59,550 bases of DNA, from positions 1 through 59,550 of the forward strand of contig JBDRCO010000026.1 of NCBI GenBank assembly GCA_043821645.1, read 5' to 3'. Made by a program: the position numbers and the translations under genes. The notes beneath the pieces are model-generated. The model was not told where the DNA came from. It searched no databases and saw nothing but the letters and a program-made list of their open reading frames with translations. This DNA is from Pseudomonadota bacterium (GTDB lineage: Bacteria; Myxococcota; JACRCW01; JAFGSX01). Shown here one piece after another: positions 1 through 9,831 of this stretch (position 1 is its first letter; each line of letters opens with the position of its first letter).

Positions 1-74
1 TCGTGATGAACTCCTGTCGCGGCTCCCGTCGACGGGAAGGTCGCGCTTTTTGGTGTGCGATGCAGGGGCCGGGG

Positions 75-413
75 TCAGGCCGCAGGAGGTCCGCGCGGCG
101 GCGCCACGACGACCAGCCAGGCATCCTGGATGTGTTCGCTGGCCACGGGCCGGGGTAGGATCGAGGTGCAGATCTCGCGCTGTTGAAGCAGAGTCCAGGT
201 GGCAAGGACGAGGCCAAGATCGGGGCCATCGCTGAAAGAAAAATCGTCGTCGCCCTGGGACTCGGGCACGGCCGTGGGCCCTTCGCTGCCCGGACCAGGC
301 TGTTGCGATCGGCGCAGGTTGCGCTGGCCTGTGGCAGGCGCCAGCCACAGCAAGACGCCCAGGGTGCTGACCACCACCAGGATCTGCCAGCTCGCTGTTC
401 GCACCTGCCGCAT
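75..413 (-). CDS. Small exported leader protein with C-terminal RGPP motif (putative ribosome-arrest/monitoring peptide)
   Basis: GGGAGG RBS upstream of ATG 413; N-terminal hydrophobic signal (WQILVVVSTLGVLLWLAPA); low-complexity linker; ends ...VVVAPPRGPPAA*. Confidence 0.65.
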   Translation of the reverse strand: MRQVRTASWQILVVVSTLGVLLWLAPATGQRNLRRSQQPGPGSEGPTAVPESQGDDDFSFSDGPDLGLVLATWTLLQQREICTSILPRPVASEHIQDAWLVVVAPPRGPPAA

Positions 414-484
414 CCGCACCTCCCAGGCACAACCCGCGGTCGTCGAAGACTATTCCCGGGGCGCCCGACGCCCGCAGACATGGA

Positions 485-520
485 ATTATATCAGTGTTAT
501 CGGTGTGTTATATTTTGTTG
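485..520 (-). promoter_or_regulatory. Extended -10 promoter (TGATATAAT) with tandem direct repeats over the -35 region
   Basis: Reverse complement of 485-493 is TGATATAAT; TGTTAT at 495-500 and 506-511 (11-bp period), TGTTG at 516-520; AT-rich island in a GC-rich genome. Confidence 0.55.
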
Positions 521-582: not shown

Positions 583-2034
583 TCACAGCGGCACGTGCAC
601 CTCGACGCGGTCGCCAGGCCGCGGCAGGTAAGCTCCGCTGAAACCCAGGCAGTGCCCGCTATCGAGCAGGGTCCAGCCACCCTCGCTGCTGCTGCTGGCA
701 CGCGGCACGATGTCCTCGCTGCCATCGGCGTGCACGAGCTTGACCACAGCCTCGGCAGGCGGCGCCTCGGGCAGGCAGACCACATCGGTGCGGTTGGCCA
801 GGTCCGCGATCTCCATCATGGTGTCGCGGTAGCTGTCCGAGCACAGAGTGTCGCGTACGCTCAGCGGCATGGCCTCGGCCAGGGCCTGGTAGCGCCGCGC
901 CGGGTCGGCCTGGCAGCAGTGGGTCGCGGGCTGCTCGACACCCTGGCAGCGCTCGGCCGGGATGGCCGGGTGGCAGGAGCACACCGGCTCGCCGTTGATG
1001 CAGATGTCGCAGGTGGCCACGCTGTTGCCCTGGGCCGGGTCGCAGACGTTGCTGTGCACGCCCTCGTCGAGCCGGCAGCCCATGGCCTCGAGTCCGTTGC
1101 CCGCGTCCGAGAAGCCCGCGATGGCCGCCACCCTGACCAGTTCGGGCCGCGTCTTGAGCCGTGTCAAGAAGCGCGCGTGTTCGGCCACCGGCGTCAGCAG
1201 CTCGGGTCGGCTGTAGCACAGGATGCTGGAGCCAGACTGGGCCTCGTCGATGGTCCCGTCGTTGGAGCAATCGTCCTCGTCGGTGACGTAGATGACCACC
1301 AGCTTGGTCTCGACCCTGTCGCCGCAAGCGTTGACCTCATCGCGGCGCCAGAACAGCGCGCGGTCGTCGCTGCAGTCGCGGGCGAGCATGCAGGTCCCTG
1401 CCGCCGGTGTGTCGTGATCCGGCGTCAGGAAGTGCTGCGCGGCCTGCATGCCTTTTTCCAGGGCCGAACCCCAGACGCCCAGATTGCGCACGATGCCACC
1501 AAAGCGTGCGGCCAGGTCCGGCGTCTCGGGGGTGAGCACGGTCAGGGCGGGAGCGTCCGGGGCGGTCTGCAGGCAGCCACGCTGGGGCACCGAGCCCCGC
1601 CCGGCGGCGCTGTAGGGGGAGTCACAGTCATGCATGTCGGTGCTGATCACGCCGATGTGAAACTTGTTGTCCAGCAGCATGAGGCGCTCGATGAAACCAC
1701 ATTCGGCATAGGTGGCCTGGTGATCCGGCGGCCACTGCGCCGGCCCCAGCTGTGCATTCTCGTCGACGTACTGGCGCAGGCGGTTAAAACCCTGGGCGTT
1801 GCACAGGCTCAGCGGGTCCGCGCTGGACGAGGCATTGCGCGCGAGATTGTCCTGCTCCTCTGCCATGGATCCCGAGTTGTCGATGACGAACAGGATGTCC
1901 GCGGCGCGCTCCACCTCGACCCGGGACATCAGCCGGGTCTCGCCACCGGCGGCGGTCAAGGGGACATCGAAGCCGTGATCCACGCAGGCGCTCGCGAGCA
2001 CCACCAGGCTCAGTGCTGCCGTGCATCGTCGCAT
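583..2034 (-). CDS. vWA-domain Cys-rich lipoprotein (myxobacterial CglB-like family)
   Basis: GGAGG RBS; lipobox LASAC; ADILFVIDNSGSM MIDAS motif; FHIGVISTD; VIYVTDEDDCS; many Cys. Confidence 0.8.
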   Translation of the reverse strand: MRRCTAALSLVVLASACVDHGFDVPLTAAGGETRLMSRVEVERAADILFVIDNSGSMAEEQDNLARNASSSADPLSLCNAQGFNRLRQYVDENAQLGPAQWPPDHQATYAECGFIERLMLLDNKFHIGVISTDMHDCDSPYSAAGRGSVPQRGCLQTAPDAPALTVLTPETPDLAARFGGIVRNLGVWGSALEKGMQAAQHFLTPDHDTPAAGTCMLARDCSDDRALFWRRDEVNACGDRVETKLVVIYVTDEDDCSNDGTIDEAQSGSSILCYSRPELLTPVAEHARFLTRLKTRPELVRVAAIAGFSDAGNGLEAMGCRLDEGVHSNVCDPAQGNSVATCDICINGEPVCSCHPAIPAERCQGVEQPATHCCQADPARRYQALAEAMPLSVRDTLCSDSYRDTMMEIADLANRTDVVCLPEAPPAEAVVKLVHADGSEDIVPRASSSSEGGWTLLDSGHCLGFSGAYLPRPGDRVEVHVPL

Positions 2035-2157
2035 GGGACCTCCATCGTGGGGTGCAACTCCTCCTTCCCTCCCTCGCGCTGAACCTTCAGTCGAAAGCGA
2101 GATCTGGCACAAATGGGTGAGCGGCGATCGCAGGTGTGCAGCCCGCCTGGTTCGGTT

Positions 2158-4599
2158 TCAGGTCGTGGGCGGACCGGGCTGGCGCCGCTGGCGCCGACGC
2201 TGCAGGGCTCCCGCGAGCAGGAACAGTGGCCACAGCATGGCGGCGCCCAGGGCCAGGCCCAGGTTGCCCGCCACGTCGAGACCCAGGGCGCTGCGGAAGG
2301 GATCGTCGTCCACCAGGTAGGTCCAGGTCGCAGAAGGCCCACGCAGCTCGGCCTGATCCAGGTCGACCTCGCCTCCGCGGAGGGTCACCCGATCCAGCGC
2401 GCGCTCGAGCTCGCGATCAAAGCTCTCGAGCATGGCCTGAAAGGCCTGATCGGCGCGGCGCAGGAACTCGGTGTGGGGTTGGGTCGTGCCCAGCCGCAGC
2501 AGGGGCAAGGACTCGCGCAGGTCGGCGATGACGCACAGGTGGTTGGCCCAGGCCCGGTCCAGCTGCACCAGGCCGAGCTGCCGCTCCACCGCGTCCAGGG
2601 CAGGCGCTCCGAGCGCCTTTGCGAGCTGCGCATGCGAGCCCGGCACGCGCTGCGCGAACACCGCCTGGGGTGCCGCCAGCAGCTCCTCGCGCAGGTGACG
2701 CAGCATCAAGCGCTGCTGCTCGACGATGCCGGAGTAGCGGCTCAGGGTGTGGCGGATCTCGGTGTTGTGCCCGTCCACCACGCGCTGGGCCCAGTGAATG
2801 CGGCTGCGCACGACGGGGTGCGCGATGCTCTCGCTGCGGCGCGCGCGGTGCTTGTCGGGGATCATCTCCGCCACGCCGTGGCGACGGACCAGGGGATCCT
2901 CGAGGCTGACGAAACAGCAACTCAGCCCCGGATCGCCCTGGCGGCCGGCGCGACCGCGCAGCTGGTTGTCGATGCGCCGGCTGTCGTGACGGTTGAGGCC
3001 GATGACGTACAGCCCACCGGCGGCCACGACATGGTCGCGCGCTGCTCCATCGGCGCCACCGAGGCAGATGTCGATGCCACGCCCCGCCATGTTGGTCGAG
3101 ATGGTCAGGGCCCCGGGGGCGCCCGCCTCGGCGATGATCTGCGCCTCGAGCTCGTCGGTGCGCGCATTGAGTACCTGGCAGTGCAGACCTCGGGCCTCGA
3201 GCCGGGCAGCCAGCTCCTCGCTCTCCGCCACCGAGGCTGTTCCGACGAGCACGGGCTGTCCCTGCGCGTGGGCGTGCACGATCTCGTCCTCGACCGCGGC
3301 GAGCTTGGCCTCGCGATGGCTGAACACGCGATCCTCGAGGTCACGACGGATGCACGGGCAATGCGAGGGTACCGGCACCGTGACCAGCCCGTAGTGCTCG
3401 AACAGCTCGACCTCGCTGGGACGTGCGGTGGCGGTCATGCCCGCGAGCCCCGGGTAGAGCGCGAAGTAGTGCTGCAAGGTCAGGCTGCCCAGCACGATGC
3501 CACTGCGGGTGATGGGCAGGCCCTCGCGCGCCTCGATGGCGGCCTGCAGGCCATCGGGCCAGTGCCTGTCGCTGGCGACGCGGCCGGTGAGCTCGTCGAC
3601 CAGCTCGACCCGCTGCGCGCGCACGATGTAGTCGACGTCGCGGCGCAGGATGGCGCGGGCGTGCAGGGCCTGGTTGAGCAGGGTGTAGGGGAGCTGGTTG
3701 TGCGCGTGCTCGAGGTTACCGCAGCCCAGCGCGGCTTCGGCCCGGGCCTGGCCCTGCTCGGTGAGGCAGGTGCTGCGCCGCGTCTCATCGACCTCGTAGT
3801 CGACCCCGGCCTGTAACTGCGCCGCCAGCGCCGCCATCTGCACCGCGTCCGGGAGACTCTCGCCGCCGTGGCCCGCCAGCACCAGCGGGATGCGCGCCTC
3901 GTCGATGAGGATGGAGTCGGCCTCGTCGACGATGCCGAAGTGCAGGGGCCGCTGCACGCGATCCTCGCTGCGGTACACCAGGCCATCGCGCAGGTGATCG
4001 AAGCCGGCTTCCTTGGCCGTGAGGTAGGTGATGTCTGCGGCGTAGGCGGTGCGCCGGTCGTCGGCGTGCTGGCCCGACTGCACACAGCCCACGCTCAGGC
4101 CGAGCCGGCGGTACACCTCGCCCATCCAGGCCGCGTCGCGGCGCGCCAGGTAGTCGTTGAATGTGAGCACGTGCACGCCGTCACCGCCCAGGGCGTGCAG
4201 GGTGGCCGCGGGCACTGCCGCCAGGGTCTTGCCCTCGCCGGTGGGCAGCTCGGCCAGCTTGCCCTGATGCAGGGCGAGGGCGCCGACGATCTGCTCGTCG
4301 AACAGGCGCTGTCCCAGTACGCGGCGCGCGATCTCGCGCACCAGGGCGAAGGTCTCGACCAGCATCGCGTCGAGGGTGGCCCCGCCGCGTCCTCGCTCGC
4401 GCAGGGTCGCCGCCGAGGCCGAGAGCGCTGCATCGTCGAGGTCACGGACTGTTTGTTCGGCCTGGTTGATCTGCGCCAGGATCTCCAGGTAGGGCGTCAG
4501 CTGGTAGTCCACGGGCTGGTTGCGCAGGCGCGCGAGCAGACGTCCTGTCAGTCCGGGATCGTCCTGGATGTCGCGCCAGTGACGGGTCACATCCACCAA
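2158..4599 (-). CDS. secA2: Accessory preprotein translocase ATPase, SecA2-like
   Basis: Walker A TGEGKT; NDYLARRDA; IVDEADSILIDEARIPL; GMTATA; STNMAGRGIDI; RRIDNQLRGRAGRQGDPG; 813 aa; no C-terminal Zn-binding tail. Confidence 0.85.
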   Translation of the reverse strand: MVDVTRHWRDIQDDPGLTGRLLARLRNQPVDYQLTPYLEILAQINQAEQTVRDLDDAALSASAATLRERGRGGATLDAMLVETFALVREIARRVLGQRLFDEQIVGALALHQGKLAELPTGEGKTLAAVPAATLHALGGDGVHVLTFNDYLARRDAAWMGEVYRRLGLSVGCVQSGQHADDRRTAYAADITYLTAKEAGFDHLRDGLVYRSEDRVQRPLHFGIVDEADSILIDEARIPLVLAGHGGESLPDAVQMAALAAQLQAGVDYEVDETRRSTCLTEQGQARAEAALGCGNLEHAHNQLPYTLLNQALHARAILRRDVDYIVRAQRVELVDELTGRVASDRHWPDGLQAAIEAREGLPITRSGIVLGSLTLQHYFALYPGLAGMTATARPSEVELFEHYGLVTVPVPSHCPCIRRDLEDRVFSHREAKLAAVEDEIVHAHAQGQPVLVGTASVAESEELAARLEARGLHCQVLNARTDELEAQIIAEAGAPGALTISTNMAGRGIDICLGGADGAARDHVVAAGGLYVIGLNRHDSRRIDNQLRGRAGRQGDPGLSCCFVSLEDPLVRRHGVAEMIPDKHRARRSESIAHPVVRSRIHWAQRVVDGHNTEIRHTLSRYSGIVEQQRLMLRHLREELLAAPQAVFAQRVPGSHAQLAKALGAPALDAVERQLGLVQLDRAWANHLCVIADLRESLPLLRLGTTQPHTEFLRRADQAFQAMLESFDRELERALDRVTLRGGEVDLDQAELRGPSATWTYLVDDDPFRSALGLDVAGNLGLALGAAMLWPLFLLAGALQRRRQRRQPGPPTT

Positions 4600-4735: not shown

Positions 4736-5488
4736 CTAGCTCGGTCGCGCGGATCGCGCGCTGCGATCGCGTCGACGCCTCGTGGCGGCGAGCAGCCCGC
4801 ACAGCAGCCATCCGATGGGGGCTGCTGGTGTGCTCGCACTGCCGCAGGAGCAGCCCGCTGCGGCATTTTGCGCATCGGCGCCGGCGTCGATGACGGCGGA
4901 GCTGCACACCCCGGACGCGCAGGTCTGGCCCGACGGGCAGGGCACGATCACGTGCTGGCCCTGCTGGTTGCAGTCGTACAGACGATCGCGGTCGAGGCAG
5001 ACGGGCTCGCAGGTGGGCCCCGCATCGACGCGGGCGTCGGCGCGGCTTGCCCCGTCGCTGCTCACGCTGACATCGGCGCGCGCAGCGTCCTGGCCAGGCG
5101 AGATCCCGGCATCGGTCGGCGGCGGTGTGCAGGCCGGCAGATCCGGCGTCGTCGAGGTGCTGCTGCTGTCGCCGGGATTGCTGATGTTGGTGGTGCGCCC
5201 GGCTGTCTGCCCGGAAGCCCAGTCGCCGCAGGGATCTCCCAGCTCCTGGCCATTGCTCTGGCCATCGAGGTCACAGTCGATGTCCCACAGGCTGTTCCAG
5301 TTGTGGCTGGAGCCATAGGCCTGGCCAAAAGCATTGCGCGTGCCGCCGCCTGCAGGGTTGACGTGGCAGGTCTCGCAGGAGAACACCGAGCCGTTGGGGA
5401 TGGTGCCCGGGAAACTCGATCGCGCGCGCGCGCCGGGCGCAGCCAGCAGCACGCCGGCGCTCATCACCGCCAGCAGCGTTCGTGACAT
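4736..5488 (-). CDS. Secreted temptin-like/CxxCH domain protein with MYXO-CTERM tail
   Basis: Signal peptide ending ARA; IPNG..CETCHVNPAGGGTRNAFG..W..DCDLDGQSNGQELGDP; tail GCSC-hydrophobic-RRRR. Confidence 0.8.
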   Translation of the reverse strand: MSRTLLAVMSAGVLLAAPGARARSSFPGTIPNGSVFSCETCHVNPAGGGTRNAFGQAYGSSHNWNSLWDIDCDLDGQSNGQELGDPCGDWASGQTAGRTTNISNPGDSSSTSTTPDLPACTPPPTDAGISPGQDAARADVSVSSDGASRADARVDAGPTCEPVCLDRDRLYDCNQQGQHVIVPCPSGQTCASGVCSSAVIDAGADAQNAAAGCSCGSASTPAAPIGWLLCGLLAATRRRRDRSARSARPS

Positions 5489-5680
5489 GAACTCTCCCCT
5501 CTGCACCACCGCACAGGTGCACTGGTGACAACCTGTGCTGGAGCATAGCGCAGCCGCTGCCTGAAGCGCGCGTCGTGTGCGTCGGGGCGGAGCTTGGGTG
5601 GATCGCTGTCTGGGTTGGTGGGGGCTTTGGCGAATCACGACCGCCGGATGCTGCTGCGGGGGCGACGTCGACGGGATTGC

Positions 5681-6739
5681 TTAGCGTCGACGAAGGCGGC
5701 GCAGCGGCAGGGCACACAGGCCCAGCATCAAGACCAGGGCACTCACGCCGGCGCCATCCTGGCCCAGCGAGGCGCAGTCGATGTCGACGTCGTGCCTGTA
5801 GTCGTTCCACGGGCAACTCGGACCGCGGCAGTCCTGGCAGCTCTCCTGGTAGCGGCATTCACCCGCGAAGGTGCAGCTCTGCTCGCCGCAGGAGTCCTCG
5901 ACGCAGGTGACGGTGCAGGACGAGCAGGTCTGCATGCAGTAAGCCCAGTCGCCATCGTGTTCGCAGATCCACTCGCACTCGCCGCAGTAGGGTTCCGCGC
6001 GGCAGCTCTGTCCCTGGTCCGCGAAGGGGCACACCGGGTCCTCGGGGGTGGGCTGGTCGCAGTCCGGCGCGTCCGGGCAGGTGGGCTCGACCGGTGGATC
6101 CACAGGCGGGTCCTCGCCGCAGCTGACGCCCGCGTCGCAGACCGGCGGGTCCTGGGGAGCCGGGGCGCCCGGGTAGTCGCTGCCGTTGGCCGGATCGGTG
6201 CCCGCGGCCACCTCATCGGCATTGCTGAAGCCGTCGCCGTCGGGGTCCTCGTCGCCATCCAGGATGCCGTCGCCATCGGTGTCGGCGTTGTTGGGGTTGG
6301 TGTTGCAGCTACCCTCGACCGCGTCGATCAGGCCATCACCATCGGTGTCCGGCGGCGGAGGAGGCGGAGGGGGCGGAGGAGGCTCGCTGCCAGGTGCATC
6401 GCTGCCGTCGGCGGGGTCGGTACCCGCGGCGATCTCTTCGCTGTTGGTGGCGCCATCGCCGTCGGGATCTTCGTCGCCGTCGAGGATGCCGTCGCCGTCG
6501 GTGTCGGCCACGCCAGGATTGGTGTTGCAGGCGGCCTCATCGTCATCGGCCAGGCCGTCGCCATCGCTGTCGATCGCACCGGGATCTTGCGCGCCCGGGT
6601 CCGAGGTGCACTGCGCCATGCAGGCGTTGTCACCTCCGCACTTGGGGCGGCAGGTCTCCTCGTCGTAGCCGTAGTACTCGTAGACGCAGCCCGTCCCCAC
6701 CAGCAGCGTCAGTCCTGCAAGCCAACTCCATTTCATCAT
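5681..6739 (-). CDS. Lipoprotein with thrombospondin type-3-like Ca-binding repeats, Cys-rich region and MYXO-CTERM-like tail
   Basis: Lipobox VGTGC; two repeats of about 58 aa containing DxDGDG, separated by poly-Pro; tail DCAS-hydrophobic-RRLRRR. Confidence 0.8.
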   Translation of the reverse strand: MMKWSWLAGLTLLVGTGCVYEYYGYDEETCRPKCGGDNACMAQCTSDPGAQDPGAIDSDGDGLADDDEAACNTNPGVADTDGDGILDGDEDPDGDGATNSEEIAAGTDPADGSDAPGSEPPPPPPPPPPPDTDGDGLIDAVEGSCNTNPNNADTDGDGILDGDEDPDGDGFSNADEVAAGTDPANGSDYPGAPAPQDPPVCDAGVSCGEDPPVDPPVEPTCPDAPDCDQPTPEDPVCPFADQGQSCRAEPYCGECEWICEHDGDWAYCMQTCSSCTVTCVEDSCGEQSCTFAGECRYQESCQDCRGPSCPWNDYRHDVDIDCASLGQDGAGVSALVLMLGLCALPLRRLRRR

Positions 6740-6966
6740 GACGCACCTCTCCCGGCCCCCGCCTCACCGGGGGGTTAAGCAGCCCGGTCGTGTACCGGCG
6801 CTGGCGCAATGGCGGTCTCGGCGTGTTGGACGCGGAGTGTGAAGCCTGTTGTGATATTTTTTTGAACGTTCTGGTCTGCGCACGACCCGGGAAATATCGT
6901 CTGCAGCTCGGCACAGGCAGGATCCCACTCTTTTTTTTAACAGCTTCGCCCCATCGAGCGTCCAAC

Positions 6967-7569
6967 ATGACGGACAGCGAACGCGGAGTGGAGCCGGCAC
7001 GGATGCGCAACCAGGAGCTTGTCGAGCGCGTGCAGGCCCAGCTTCCGGGAGCGTTCGAGGAGTTTTACTACGCCTATGTGGACCGCGTGCACCGACACCT
7101 GTTCTCCATCGTGGGCCCGGATTCGGACCTCGACGACCTCGTGCAGCAGACCTTCGTGCTGGTTCACCAGCGAATTCATACCTTTCGCGGAGAATCGAGC
7201 GTCTCGACCTGGCTGCACCGCGTCACCGTCAACGTCGCCCTGGATCACCTGCGACGGCGGCGGCGCTGGTTCCGGCTGGACAGCGTGCGCGACATGCTCC
7301 CCATGCCGTCCGAGCCCGAGCAGCCTGATGCCATGGCCGACCGCGGCCAGCAAATCCGTGTCCTGCACCAGGTCCTCGACAGGCTCAAGCCCAAGAAAAG
7401 ATTGGTGTTCGTGATGTACGAGATCGAGGGCCACACGCTGGAGGAAATCGCCGAGGTGGTGGATTCGTCGGTCAACACGGTGGCGGCCCGGCTGCGCGCG
7501 GCCCGCCAGGAAGTACGACAGGCCATGGAGCGACGCCTCAAGCAGGTGCCACTCAAGGCCGTGGGATGA
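6967..7569 (+). CDS. ECF RNA polymerase sigma factor
   Basis: DDLVQQTF; FRGESSVSTWLHRVTVNVALD; region 4 EGHTLEEIAEV..VNTVAARLRAAR. Confidence 0.92.
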   Translation: MTDSERGVEPARMRNQELVERVQAQLPGAFEEFYYAYVDRVHRHLFSIVGPDSDLDDLVQQTFVLVHQRIHTFRGESSVSTWLHRVTVNVALDHLRRRRRWFRLDSVRDMLPMPSEPEQPDAMADRGQQIRVLHQVLDRLKPKKRLVFVMYEIEGHTLEEIAEVVDSSVNTVAARLRAARQEVRQAMERRLKQVPLKAVG

Positions 7570-8711
7570 CGGACATGGACGAGGTGCGCTGCCAGCAGAT
7601 CCGCGACCAGCTCCACGCCTTCAGGGGTGGTGAGGGCACGCCGCTGTGGCGGCAGTCGGTGGAAGTGCACGTGGCAGGCTGTGCGTCCTGCCGAAGCGAG
7701 CTGTGGCTGCAGGCCGAGCTCGAGAGCGCCGCCAAGCAGGGACCGCCTCCCCTGAGCGATGCCCGCAAGCGAGTGATCCTCGAGGGCGTGCTCGAGGATA
7801 TCGAGGACCAGCCCAGCGTGGTGGCGCGGGTGCGCCGTCTGGGCTGGCCGCGCCTGGCCGTGCCAGCCGTGGCCATGGCGGCGGCCGCAGCCATGATGCT
7901 GTGGCTGCACCAGCCCGAGCCCCAGCCCGAGCTCAGCGGCTGGGTGCAGGCAGGCTTGGGGGTCGAGGCCTTCGCGCCGGAGGCTGCGGCACTGCGCTAC
8001 GAGGCCACGCCGGATCGACCCATCCTGGTGCTGGAGCGGCAGACCGTGATGGTGCGCTTCACGCGGCCCGAGGGCGTGCAGCCGCTGGAGGTGCGCACCC
8101 CCCACGCCACCGTGTACGTGCGGGGTACCGTGTTCTTCGTCGAGGTGCGCGAGGACCAGACAGTGATCGGCGTGCAGCACGGCCTGGTTGAAGTGATGGA
8201 TGCCGAAGGCCGCAGCGTGATGGTCGGCTCGCAGCAGCAGGCGGCCACCACCGTCGACGGCTTTGCCCGCGAGGAGCCCAGGAGTCCGCACTTTGCCATG
8301 CTGGACGCCCTGTTCCCCGAAGAGGAACCGCCGCCCCTCGACGAGCCCCGGCCCCTGCCCGCCGATCCCAAGCCGCGGCCGAGACCGCCCCGCGTCCGCG
8401 CCACGCCCCCGGACCCTGACGCCATCGCGGCGGTGGTCGCGCGCAACAGGTACCTGATCCGCGAGTGCTACGAAAGTGCGCTCAAGAAGGACAGCAGCCT
8501 GGCCGGAACCGTCGAGGTCGAGATCGTGTACGGCGCCGAGGGCCAGGTGCTGGAGGCGCGTCTGCTGGACCAGGGCATAGGCGTCGACGAGGTGCACGAC
8601 TGCATGCTGCAGCGCATCAGCAGCTGGCGCTTCCCCACCAGCGACGCCGGCGCGGTCACCGTGCGCGTCCCCTTCGTGCTCACCCTGGCCCCGAACAAGA
8701 TCGGCAAGTAG
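7566..8711 (+). CDS. Anti-sigma factor: ZAS zinc finger + TM + FecR + Pro-rich linker + TonB/AgmX-type C-terminal domain
   Basis: ATGA overlap with the sigma gene; HVAGCASC; TM; VRTPHATVYVRGTVFFV (FecR); IRECYESALK..LAGTVEV..WRFP..VRVPF. Confidence 0.8.
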   Translation: MTDMDEVRCQQIRDQLHAFRGGEGTPLWRQSVEVHVAGCASCRSELWLQAELESAAKQGPPPLSDARKRVILEGVLEDIEDQPSVVARVRRLGWPRLAVPAVAMAAAAAMMLWLHQPEPQPELSGWVQAGLGVEAFAPEAAALRYEATPDRPILVLERQTVMVRFTRPEGVQPLEVRTPHATVYVRGTVFFVEVREDQTVIGVQHGLVEVMDAEGRSVMVGSQQQAATTVDGFAREEPRSPHFAMLDALFPEEEPPPLDEPRPLPADPKPRPRPPRVRATPPDPDAIAAVVARNRYLIRECYESALKKDSSLAGTVEVEIVYGAEGQVLEARLLDQGIGVDEVHDCMLQRISSWRFPTSDAGAVTVRVPFVLTLAPNKIGK

Positions 8712-8778
8712 GCACCCCGCGAGAGCTTTCTCGTGACTTGCCATGGCGCACTCGCGGGCCCTGCACTAGAACCTGTGG

Positions 8779-9831
8779 ATGATCTGCCCTCTCCTTCGAG
8801 CTGCCCGTGCTCGGCGCGCACACCTCGGGCTCCTGATGATCTGCGCGCAGCTGGTGGCTCCCGCTGCCTCCGCGCGCGACCAGGCCTCGGGCCAGGTCCT
8901 CAAGATCGGCACCATGGCGCCGGAGAACACCCTGCCGCATCGGGCCCTGCTGAAGATGGCGCAGATCTTCGACGAGGAGACCCAGGGTCAGGTGCAGCTC
9001 AAGATCTATCCCGGGACCGTGGGCGACGAGCCCACCATCGTGCGCAAGCTGCGCGTGGGTCAGCTGCAAGGTGCGCTGCTGTCGAGCAAGGGCCTGGGCA
9101 ATGTCAGCACCGAACCCATCGCCATGCAGCTGCCCATGATGTTCGACAGCACGGCCGAGATCGACGCCGTGCTGGCGCAGATGCAGCCCACCTTCGACCG
9201 CGCGCTCGAGGCGGACGGCCTGGTGCCTCTGGCCTGGAGCGATGGTGGCTGGATCTACCTGTTCGCGTCGGAGCCTGCGGTCTCGGTGGTGGACATGGCG
9301 CGGCGCAAGATGTGGATGTGGCCCCATGACGACGGCGCCGTGGCCAGCTTTGCCTCCATCGGGCTGCAGCCGGTGATCCTGTCCGACGTGGACATCCTGC
9401 CAGCGCTGCGCACGGGCATGGTCGAGGTCTTCCCGGGCACGCCGATGACCGCCCTGGCCTTGCAGACCTTTCCGTCGACGCCGCACATGGTCGACGTGCC
9501 CATCGCCTTCATGCTCGCCGCGGTGGTGGTGGACCGCAGCGCCTGGCAGCGCATCCCGCCACAGCAGCGCGCACGCATCCTCGCCCGCTGCCAGCAGGGT
9601 GGCGCAGAGATGAGCGCCGAGGTACGCCGCAGCAATGTCGAGGCCCTGGCCATCCTCAAGACGCGCGGGGTGGTGGTACACAGCCCCAGCCCGGCCCAGC
9701 GTGAAGCCTGGCGAACCGCGGGCGCCAGGGCGCTCGAGCTGGCGCGCGGTCGCAGTGTCGACGCGGCGCTGGTCGACGAGGTGTTACGACGCCGGGATGC
9801 CTTTCGCGCCAGCCACAGATCGCAGCCCTAG
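8779..9831 (+). CDS. dctP: TRAP transporter substrate-binding protein (DctP family)
   Basis: LKIGTMAPENT; LKIYPGTVGDE..KLRVGQLQGA; ALRTGMVE; signal peptide; start codon uncertain. Confidence 0.8.
   Translation: MICPLLRAARARRAHLGLLMICAQLVAPAASARDQASGQVLKIGTMAPENTLPHRALLKMAQIFDEETQGQVQLKIYPGTVGDEPTIVRKLRVGQLQGALLSSKGLGNVSTEPIAMQLPMMFDSTAEIDAVLAQMQPTFDRALEADGLVPLAWSDGGWIYLFASEPAVSVVDMARRKMWMWPHDDGAVASFASIGLQPVILSDVDILPALRTGMVEVFPGTPMTALALQTFPSTPHMVDVPIAFMLAAVVVDRSAWQRIPPQQRARILARCQQGGAEMSAEVRRSNVEALAILKTRGVVVHSPSPAQREAWRTAGARALELARGRSVDAALVDEVLRRRDAFRASHRSQP

Follow-up and report, generated by a model that had tools for sequence, protein, structure and literature searches.

A small orphan open reading frame ending in PPRGPPAA at a contig end of a myxococcotal genome: a tentative arrest-peptide candidate, and a proposed Shine-Dalgarno switch whose pairing does not rise above chance

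The window analysed here, i.e. positions 1-59,550 of contig C26 (JBDRCO010000026.1) in the 140-contig, 7.07 Mb genome assembly of a bacterium placed among the Myxococcota (GCA_043821645.1), starts at a contig end, and close to this end, on the minus strand, lies the small open reading frame (ORF) with which we are concerned. It runs from an ATG at 413-411 to a TGA at 77-75 (coding sequence 78-413, minus strand) and specifies a protein of 112 amino acids (aa), P0001, or of 114 aa if the GTG at 419 is taken as the start. A Shine-Dalgarno (SD) sequence, GGGAGG (419-424), precedes the ATG by 5 nucleotides (nt), which is precisely the distance at which the spacing between GGAGG and start codons peaks in this genome (283 counts). 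The protein begins with MRQVRTASWQILVVVSTLGVLLWLAPATGQ, and its residues 1-27 (encoded by 333-413) look like a signal peptide, a call based purely on hydropathy: R2 and R5 precede a 17-residue hydrophobic core (residues 9-25), A-P-A follows, and the Kyte-Doolittle mean over residues 9-27 is 1.85. Then comes a low-complexity linker rich in P, G, S, Q, D and E (residues ∼29-64), and the protein finishes as ...VVVAPPRGPPAA, its C-terminus being PPRGPPAA. The last codons are CGC (95-93), GGA (92-90), CCT (89-87), CCT (86-84), GCG, GCC and the stop codon TGA; the first four of them (84-95), read as R107-G108-P109-P110, constitute a candidate arrest core. A first-pass annotation of this DNA, which took the ORF for a ribosome-arrest leader controlling the next gene, had described its length, signal-like N-terminus, disordered linker, C-terminus and last codons in the same way, and our reading of the sequence confirms them. 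The structure model of the protein in the Atlas shows no confident fold (predicted local distance difference test score of 0.61), and no domain is annotated. The contig stops 74 nt beyond the stop codon of the ORF, which leaves any downstream gene out of view.

The size and the two ends of the protein recall the small secretory RAPP/RGPP arrest (‘monitoring’) peptides of Fujiwara et al. (Nat Commun 2024, PMC10987492; EMBO J 2025, PMC12992588). According to the second of these accounts, few tetrapeptides are as strongly depleted in bacteria as RGPP, small secretory or membrane proteins show an enrichment of RAPP and RGPP close to their C-terminal ends, and the proteins in question are encoded upstream of sec, TonB-receptor, copper-related and other genes; in Streptomyces lividans, seven out of seven tested proteins of this type arrested translation in a motif-dependent manner (PMC12992588). 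The sequence signature of the class is found again in P0001: a RAPP-like core near the C-terminus of a protein of less than 300 aa (here RGPP, then AA and the stop codon, in 112 aa), an N-terminal localisation signal, as judged from hydropathy (R2, R5, core 9-25, A-P-A), and, separating the two, a spacer longer than 30 residues, here about 80 residues from residue 27 to P109. The protein is thus similar to the ‘RQH family’ and to the orphan upstream ORFs (uORFs) of this class in size, N-terminal signal, spacer and C-terminal RGPP. It is also without annotated domain or confident fold, and orphan status is itself described for the class, orphan RAPP/RGPP uORFs being a stated category (PMC10987492). 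It differs from the class in that the co-directional downstream gene, which is a defining element, would fall beyond the contig end, in that it has no homologues and hence no conserved C-terminal motif, and in that its ORF sits downstream of a SecA paralogue and not upstream.

Within this genome, the tetrapeptide is rare as well. Among 2195 long ORFs with a typical GC content at third codon positions (GC3), hereafter the confident genes, on which our codon models were also trained, RGPP is found 10 times for 29.4 expected, in agreement with the published depletion (PMC12992588), and RAPP 19 times for 38.2 expected. When all 53,966 ORFs of 35-300 aa were considered, 438 carried R[AG]PP, RAGP or RAPG within the last 15 residues, and 429 of these had no positive coding score. 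Among the nine remaining ones, P0001 is the only protein shorter than 150 aa with a strongly hydrophobic N-terminus; in five of the nine, RAPP is part of a tail of similar type, [DA]P[AP]RAPPQA..., and C is the last residue of four of these (PC or LC). By our estimate, chance alone would place RGPP within the last 15 residues in about 0.4 genes per genome; for a small, signal-bearing protein with RGPP two residues from the C-terminus, the chance expectation is well under one per genome.

The reading that we prefer, tentatively and with a probability that we place slightly below even, is that the ORF is a real orphan gene for a small Sec-exported protein, and that its RGPP tail makes it a candidate arrest peptide of the RAPP/RGPP class. 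By analogy with the toeprint of CruR (PMC12992588), the ribosome would stall with P109, the last residue on the peptidyl-tRNA, in the P site and the Pro-tRNA for P110 in the A site. Since about 80 residues would then lie between the signal sequence and the stall site, the former would be outside the ribosome, where the translocon could pull on it, and this pulling would release the stall. It is reasonable to regard P0001 as a candidate addition to this class of arrest peptides, which is already known. Two other ORFs with a good coding score, a hydrophobic N-terminus and a RAPP-like motif near the C-terminus, one of 247 aa (C123:13417-14160, plus strand) ending in ...DDDDRAPPGGWVH and the other of 256 aa (C35:340-1110, plus strand) ending in ...RVRAGP, may also be candidates for arrest peptides, and for both of them the assembly includes the genes downstream.

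The DNA between the ORF and the contig end lends itself to a more ordinary explanation. No coding signal was found in any frame over positions 1-75. A perfect 14-nt palindrome, TCCCGTCGACGGGA, lies at 24-37, as the first-pass annotation had noted; it is unique in the genome, which has 1073 perfect 14-nt palindromes in 7.07 Mb (0.15/kb). It extends to an 11-bp bulged stem at 18-45, and on the plus strand, after 1 nt, it is followed by five T residues (T5, 47-51), so that folding gives a terminator-like arrangement at 18-51. As RNA, the hairpin (16-46) has a folding energy of -16.3 kcal/mol on the plus strand versus -14.0 kcal/mol on the minus strand, and over 1-56 these energies become -23.1 and -14.6 kcal/mol, i.e. 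the plus-strand RNA is the more stable by 2.3-8.5 kcal/mol. Moreover, the plus strand reads TCG TGA TGA at 1-9, and these tandem in-frame stop codons (4-9) possibly end a convergent gene located beyond the contig. According to this explanation, P0001 would be an ordinary small secreted protein, the last of its transcription unit, in which RGPP is incidental or tolerated; a plus-strand gene beyond the edge would end at the TGA at 4-6, the hairpin at 18-45 with its T5 would terminate its transcript, and AGGAG (15-11 on the minus strand), which had been seen as the SD of the next gene and which lies outside the usual range of spacing (see below), would only be the complement of CTCCT beside that stop codon.

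How far does the hairpin inform us about the neighbour? Hairpins followed by T5, under a definition applied to the whole genome that also covers the present site, are found at 16 sites in 408 convergent gaps (both orientations), at 25 sites in sense and 13 in antisense orientation in 1444 co-directional gaps, and at 13 sites in 440 divergent gaps. This yields a likelihood ratio of about 2.2 for a convergent neighbour, and this is about offset by the prior, with 703 co-directional to 408 convergent neighbours; a convergent and a co-directional gene beyond the edge are therefore about equally likely. The arrangement is nearly as frequent in divergent gaps, however, and thus predicts termination only weakly, and a scan of positions 1-600 for sigma-70 promoters and consensus terminators returned no sites, that of the hairpin included. 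The assembly itself does not lead any further: on the position 1 side, the first 15-127 nt share no k-mer overlap with any other of the 140 contigs. A similarity of 18-36 to the ends of contigs C5 and C20 was rejected as a chance match, which falls within a coding region that those contigs share. The last ∼130 nt of C20 are the first ∼130 nt of C5, so that C20 and C5 are probably neighbours in the genome.

Several observations have to be set against our preferred reading of P0001 as an arrest-peptide candidate. There is no co-directional gene visible within the 74 nt after the stop codon, and both the plus-strand hairpin with its T5 and the TGATGA at 4-9 suit a convergent gene. Ten long proteins of this genome tolerate RGPP, and a 217-aa ORF on contig C87 has RGPP near its C-terminus without having a hydrophobic N-terminus. 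The coding signal, which amounts to +10.4 nat over 413-150, is weak over the last 25 codons (76-150, +2.9 nat). In the absence of homologues, no alignment exists in which conservation of RGPP could show. Finally, arrest depends on the species of the ribosome, since on E. coli ribosomes the translation of six of the seven S. lividans peptides mainly ran to full length (PMC12992588). An incidental RGPP, on the other hand, is at variance with the low expectation for a small signal-bearing protein carrying the motif so near its end, and with the arrest observed for all the S. lividans proteins sharing this signature. On balance, we regard an ordinary secreted protein followed by a convergent gene as the chief rival of our reading, possible but rather unlikely.

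A second alternative is that the ORF is not translated at all, i.e. that it is a chance frame in GC-rich non-coding DNA, in which RGPP would result from the high content in Arg, Gly and Pro. In its favour are the orphan status of the ORF wherever relatives were sought, a GC3 of 0.77 that is lower than that of the neighbouring gene (0.86), the great majority of motif-bearing ORFs with no positive coding score, and a coding score, 0.119 nat/codon, that does not go much beyond the 5th percentile for pieces of 112 codons taken from the 2195 true-gene segments. But this score is attained by only 0.06% of 5117 shadow ORFs and by 4.9% of 4544 other ORFs of 90-140 aa, and the log-likelihood of the ORF frame (-429.9) exceeds those of the background (-443.2) and of the best of the five other frames (-454.0), which puts the in-frame codon model ahead by 13 and 24 nat, respectively. 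A strong SD at the optimal spacing, the GC content by codon position (0.73/0.54/0.77) and a coherent signal-like N-terminus also speak against a spurious frame, as does the finding of RGPP within the last 10 residues in just one of the 5117 shadow ORFs. Because of its codon statistics and of this SD, the ORF is very probably a real gene, and we hold its being a chance frame to be improbable. It may also have its own promoter, because the 163-nt spacer upstream of it (420-582) is AT-richer (62.6% GC versus 69% for the window) and displays, between 485 and 529 and with respect to the minus strand, a TATAAT (490-485) and an inverted repeat with perfect 7-bp arms, GTTATCG (496-502) and CGATAAC (523-529), which are 20 nt apart; this segment possibly holds both the promoter and an operator.

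Searches for relatives were uniformly unproductive. No homologue of P0001 was found in 60 related genomes; among 5.8 billion clustered proteins the sole match was P0001 itself, and a scan without word index of 1.84 billion representatives gave, besides P0001, one marginal match over 35 residues (E = 1.9e-4). Pfam and NCBIfam returned no family, even at E-values up to 10 in the case of Pfam, and Rfam nothing above threshold, the only sub-threshold match being to Mu-gpT-DE (16.8 bits for a gathering score of 49). Protein-guided scans of a metagenome contig collection (451 pattern matches) and of a genome contig collection (384) yielded no confirmed case. As far as these sequence comparisons go, the gene is confined to this lineage and an orphan in all collections searched. 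Protein-language-model neighbours, which we consider as a lead only, are nameless clusters of ∼100-116 aa (scores 0.96 and 0.95); among clusters that bear a name, one labelled DUF2946 (0.93) and CzcI (0.92) come closest. With the DUF2946/CruR leaders, P0001 has in common a small exported protein (export being a prediction for P0001) with a C-terminal RAPP-like motif, but it has no Pfam match to any DUF at E-values up to 10, and its motif is RGPP and not RAPP.

The same DNA does occur in sequencing runs. Identical stretches are present in a second, older sample, at 103-368 (run X2) and at 1-157 and 222-395 (run X3), with no differences in either case; this is a recurrence of the organism and says nothing about expression of the ORF. 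One contig of run X1 and one of run X3 extend past position 1, by 17 and 39 nt, respectively, while exact scans with 34 nt for an extension past position 1 gave no match in either the metagenome or the genome contig collection. Another X3 contig (record 13) differs from the window at 9 of 114 nt over 343-456, i.e. over the first 23 codons of the ORF and its 5′ leader, whereas upstream of position 456 the two sequences diverge completely; the ORF may, then, be present in a related strain within another upstream context.

The neighbourhood of the ORF is of interest because of a SecA paralogue of 813 aa encoded on the same strand, two genes upstream (2158-4599, minus strand). Its product scores 743.6 bits against the NCBIfam model TIGR04221 (accessory SecA2, mycobacterial type; cut-off 725) and stays below the own cut-offs of the canonical SecA models, the canonical SecA of this organism being encoded on contig C118. 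The SecA2-type paralogue is devoid of the Zn-finger tail of the C118 protein and terminates in a hydrophobic and then Arg-rich segment resembling a membrane anchor. Full-length orthologues exist in three related genomes (G002, G005 and G038, 46-51% identity; 51% for G002 and 48% for G005), and those of G002 and G005 have similar hydrophobic, basic tails. The description covers the gene in the window and those at 6925-9360 in locus L037 and at 6656-9106 in locus L038. A convergent gene follows the SecA2 orthologue in both G002 and G005.

Between the SecA2-type gene and the small ORF lies a gene for a lipoprotein-like protein of 509 aa (583-2112, minus strand), with a Cys after an LVVLASA stretch, a DNSGS (DxSxS) motif and a faint match to VWA_2 (E = 0.27); no relative with a solved structure was found. 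Four copies of this gene are present in the genome, the three paralogues being at C20:8951-10459, C1:89819-91075 and C130:12-974, and matches were obtained in 105 of 301 genomes of the phylum (a tally that includes one match in the unpublished genome G195). None of the six relatives' loci that we examined for this gene has an adjacent SecA paralogue or a homologue of the small ORF, and no comparable small ORF was seen at the loci of the 509-aa paralogues or of the relatives' SecA2 orthologues.

Further upstream, two genes (4736-5638 and 5681-6739, both on the minus strand) code for secreted-looking proteins, one with a Temptin_C domain and the other with TSP3 repeats. The C-terminal end of both proteins consists of a hydrophobic stretch and then a cluster of Arg residues, and we take these tails to resemble the C-terminal sorting tags of the MYXO-CTERM type. 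At 6790-8711, on the plus strand and therefore divergent from this secretion-related minus-strand cluster, there is a gene for an extracytoplasmic function (ECF) sigma factor and then, with a 4-nt overlap, one for an anti-sigma factor of the zf-HC2/FecR type.

One could imagine from this arrangement that the RGPP peptide is a monitoring substrate of an accessory secretion locus, i.e. that the SecA2-type ATPase would assist in its export and that a prolonged stall would induce a co-directional gene just past the edge. We consider this a very improbable reading. Among the literature records listed, no link between SecA2 and arrest peptides was found, the records combining SecA2 and Myxococc having been judged from their titles and the openings of their abstracts; an apparent mention of SecA2 in PMC10987492 is secA run together with the number of a reference. 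An arrest peptide of the RAPP-like family is on record for this group of bacteria, namely uA_RQH_Myxococcales, a QAPP uORF located upstream of secA (PMC10987492). It is of the same arrest-peptide type as that for which P0001 is a candidate, and the phylum is the one that the first-pass annotation had proposed; but that family precedes the canonical secA and carries QAPP. The canonical secA of the present genome (C118:156466-159444) has a divergent gene upstream of it and no RAPP-like uORF.

There remains the complete mechanism put forward in the first-pass annotation, namely an export-sensing translational switch in which a stall at codons 109/110, on the segment CUCCUGCGGC (88-79, minus strand), would free AGGAG, as the SD of the next gene, from pairing with that segment. 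The idea derives from the SecM system of E. coli, where the SD of secA is sequestered in a stem-loop that the stalled ribosome melts, as described in the introduction of PMC10987492. The complementarity exists: on the minus strand, CUCCUGCGGC can pair with GCCGC (23-19) and AGGAG (15-11), with a 3-nt bulge in the GCCGC-GAC-AGGAG segment (11-23), exactly as had been read. A ribosome with P109 in its P site would cover about 101-74 and thereby occlude the anti-SD segment. The codons are minority ones, too, since GGA makes up 9.1% and CCT 9.2% of the codons for their amino acids in the confident genes, and CCTCCT accounts for 97 of 5091 Pro-Pro pairs (1.9%). The rarity of CCT stood up genome-wide, but the argument drawn from it is weakened because the ORF uses this codon for 4 of its 12 Pro residues. 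A SecA2-type gene two genes upstream might also be counted in favour of export sensing.

The placement of AGGAG is a first difficulty. No ATG, GTG or TTG is present in positions 10-1 (UUCAUCACGA), so that any start codon must be 10 nt or more away from it. Genome-wide, the spacing between AGGAG and in-frame start codons peaks at 5-9 nt (122, 304, 131, 120 and 96 counts), with 44 counts at 10 nt and 27 at 11 nt for a background of about 20-60, and we estimate that only ∼3% of the excess signal lies at 10 nt or more. With such spacing data, AGGAG could act as an SD only for a start codon that follows immediately on the contig end, and its description as the well-placed SD of a gene at the edge does not hold.

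The pairing is a second one. Among the duplexes that the SD segment can form with the 86 nt upstream, the best one, which differs from the helix proposed initially, has an energy of -17.3 kcal/mol, but this value is equalled by 27% of 1000 dinucleotide shuffles and by 17% of 614 other pieces of the window. Nor does the minus-strand fold of positions 1-120 rise above chance (z = +0.53, with 142 out of 200 shuffles folding at least equally well). Within the folds, CUCCU is the dominant partner of AGGAG in two out of four contexts, with a pair probability of about 0.77 at 100 and 150 nt; the probability is 0.17 at 120 nt and 0.001 at 200 nt, and for the GCGGC:GCCGC half of the helix it does not exceed 0.07 in any of the four. 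When the stalled state was mimicked by leaving 74-71 nt free, a local hairpin (38-11) still paired GGAG. The cost of opening the SD was 1.5-2.3 kcal/mol in this mimic, 2.9-6.3 kcal/mol with 90-100 nt and 0.7-2.6 kcal/mol with 110-150 nt; because it is no lower in the mimic than with 110-150 nt, there is no consistent on/off switch. An SD stem-loop that a stalled ribosome would open, as in SecM, is therefore not what we find, and homologues in which covariation might have been sought are lacking. P0001 and SecM are alike in being signal-bearing proteins with a C-terminal core of the R-x-x-P type (RAGP in SecM, where it is a leader of secA), but no sequence homology connects them (no family in Pfam or NCBIfam), the helix at P0001 is not above chance, the SD spacing is wrong, and the sec gene is upstream of the ORF and not downstream. 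Pairing of the arrest codons with AGGAG is unlikely to be the mechanism, and the switch as a whole, with spacing, chance-level complementarity, a fold that changes with context and an SD that stays paired in the mimic of the stall all speaking against it, is the least probable of the readings considered here. What stands of the arrest-leader proposal is the resemblance of P0001 to the RAPP/RGPP class, together with the depletion of RGPP in the genome.

At present, the value of the analysis is mainly negative: in this GC-rich sequence, the attractive link of the arrest codons to an anti-SD segment does not exceed what chance would produce, and a contig with only 74 nt left behind the stop codon cannot carry a claim about regulation. 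The interest of the candidate rests mainly on its SecA2 neighbourhood. If the peptide did prove to be connected with the SecA2-type ATPase, it would be the first arrest peptide tied to the SecA2 pathway, and this in a lineage of Gram-negative type. If, more simply, the ORF stalls ribosomes, it would add to the RAPP/RGPP peptides an orphan, lineage-specific example from a poorly sampled environmental lineage, encoded beside a SecA2-type gene, and would lend weight to the view, already published, that sensors of this kind have repeated and local origins.

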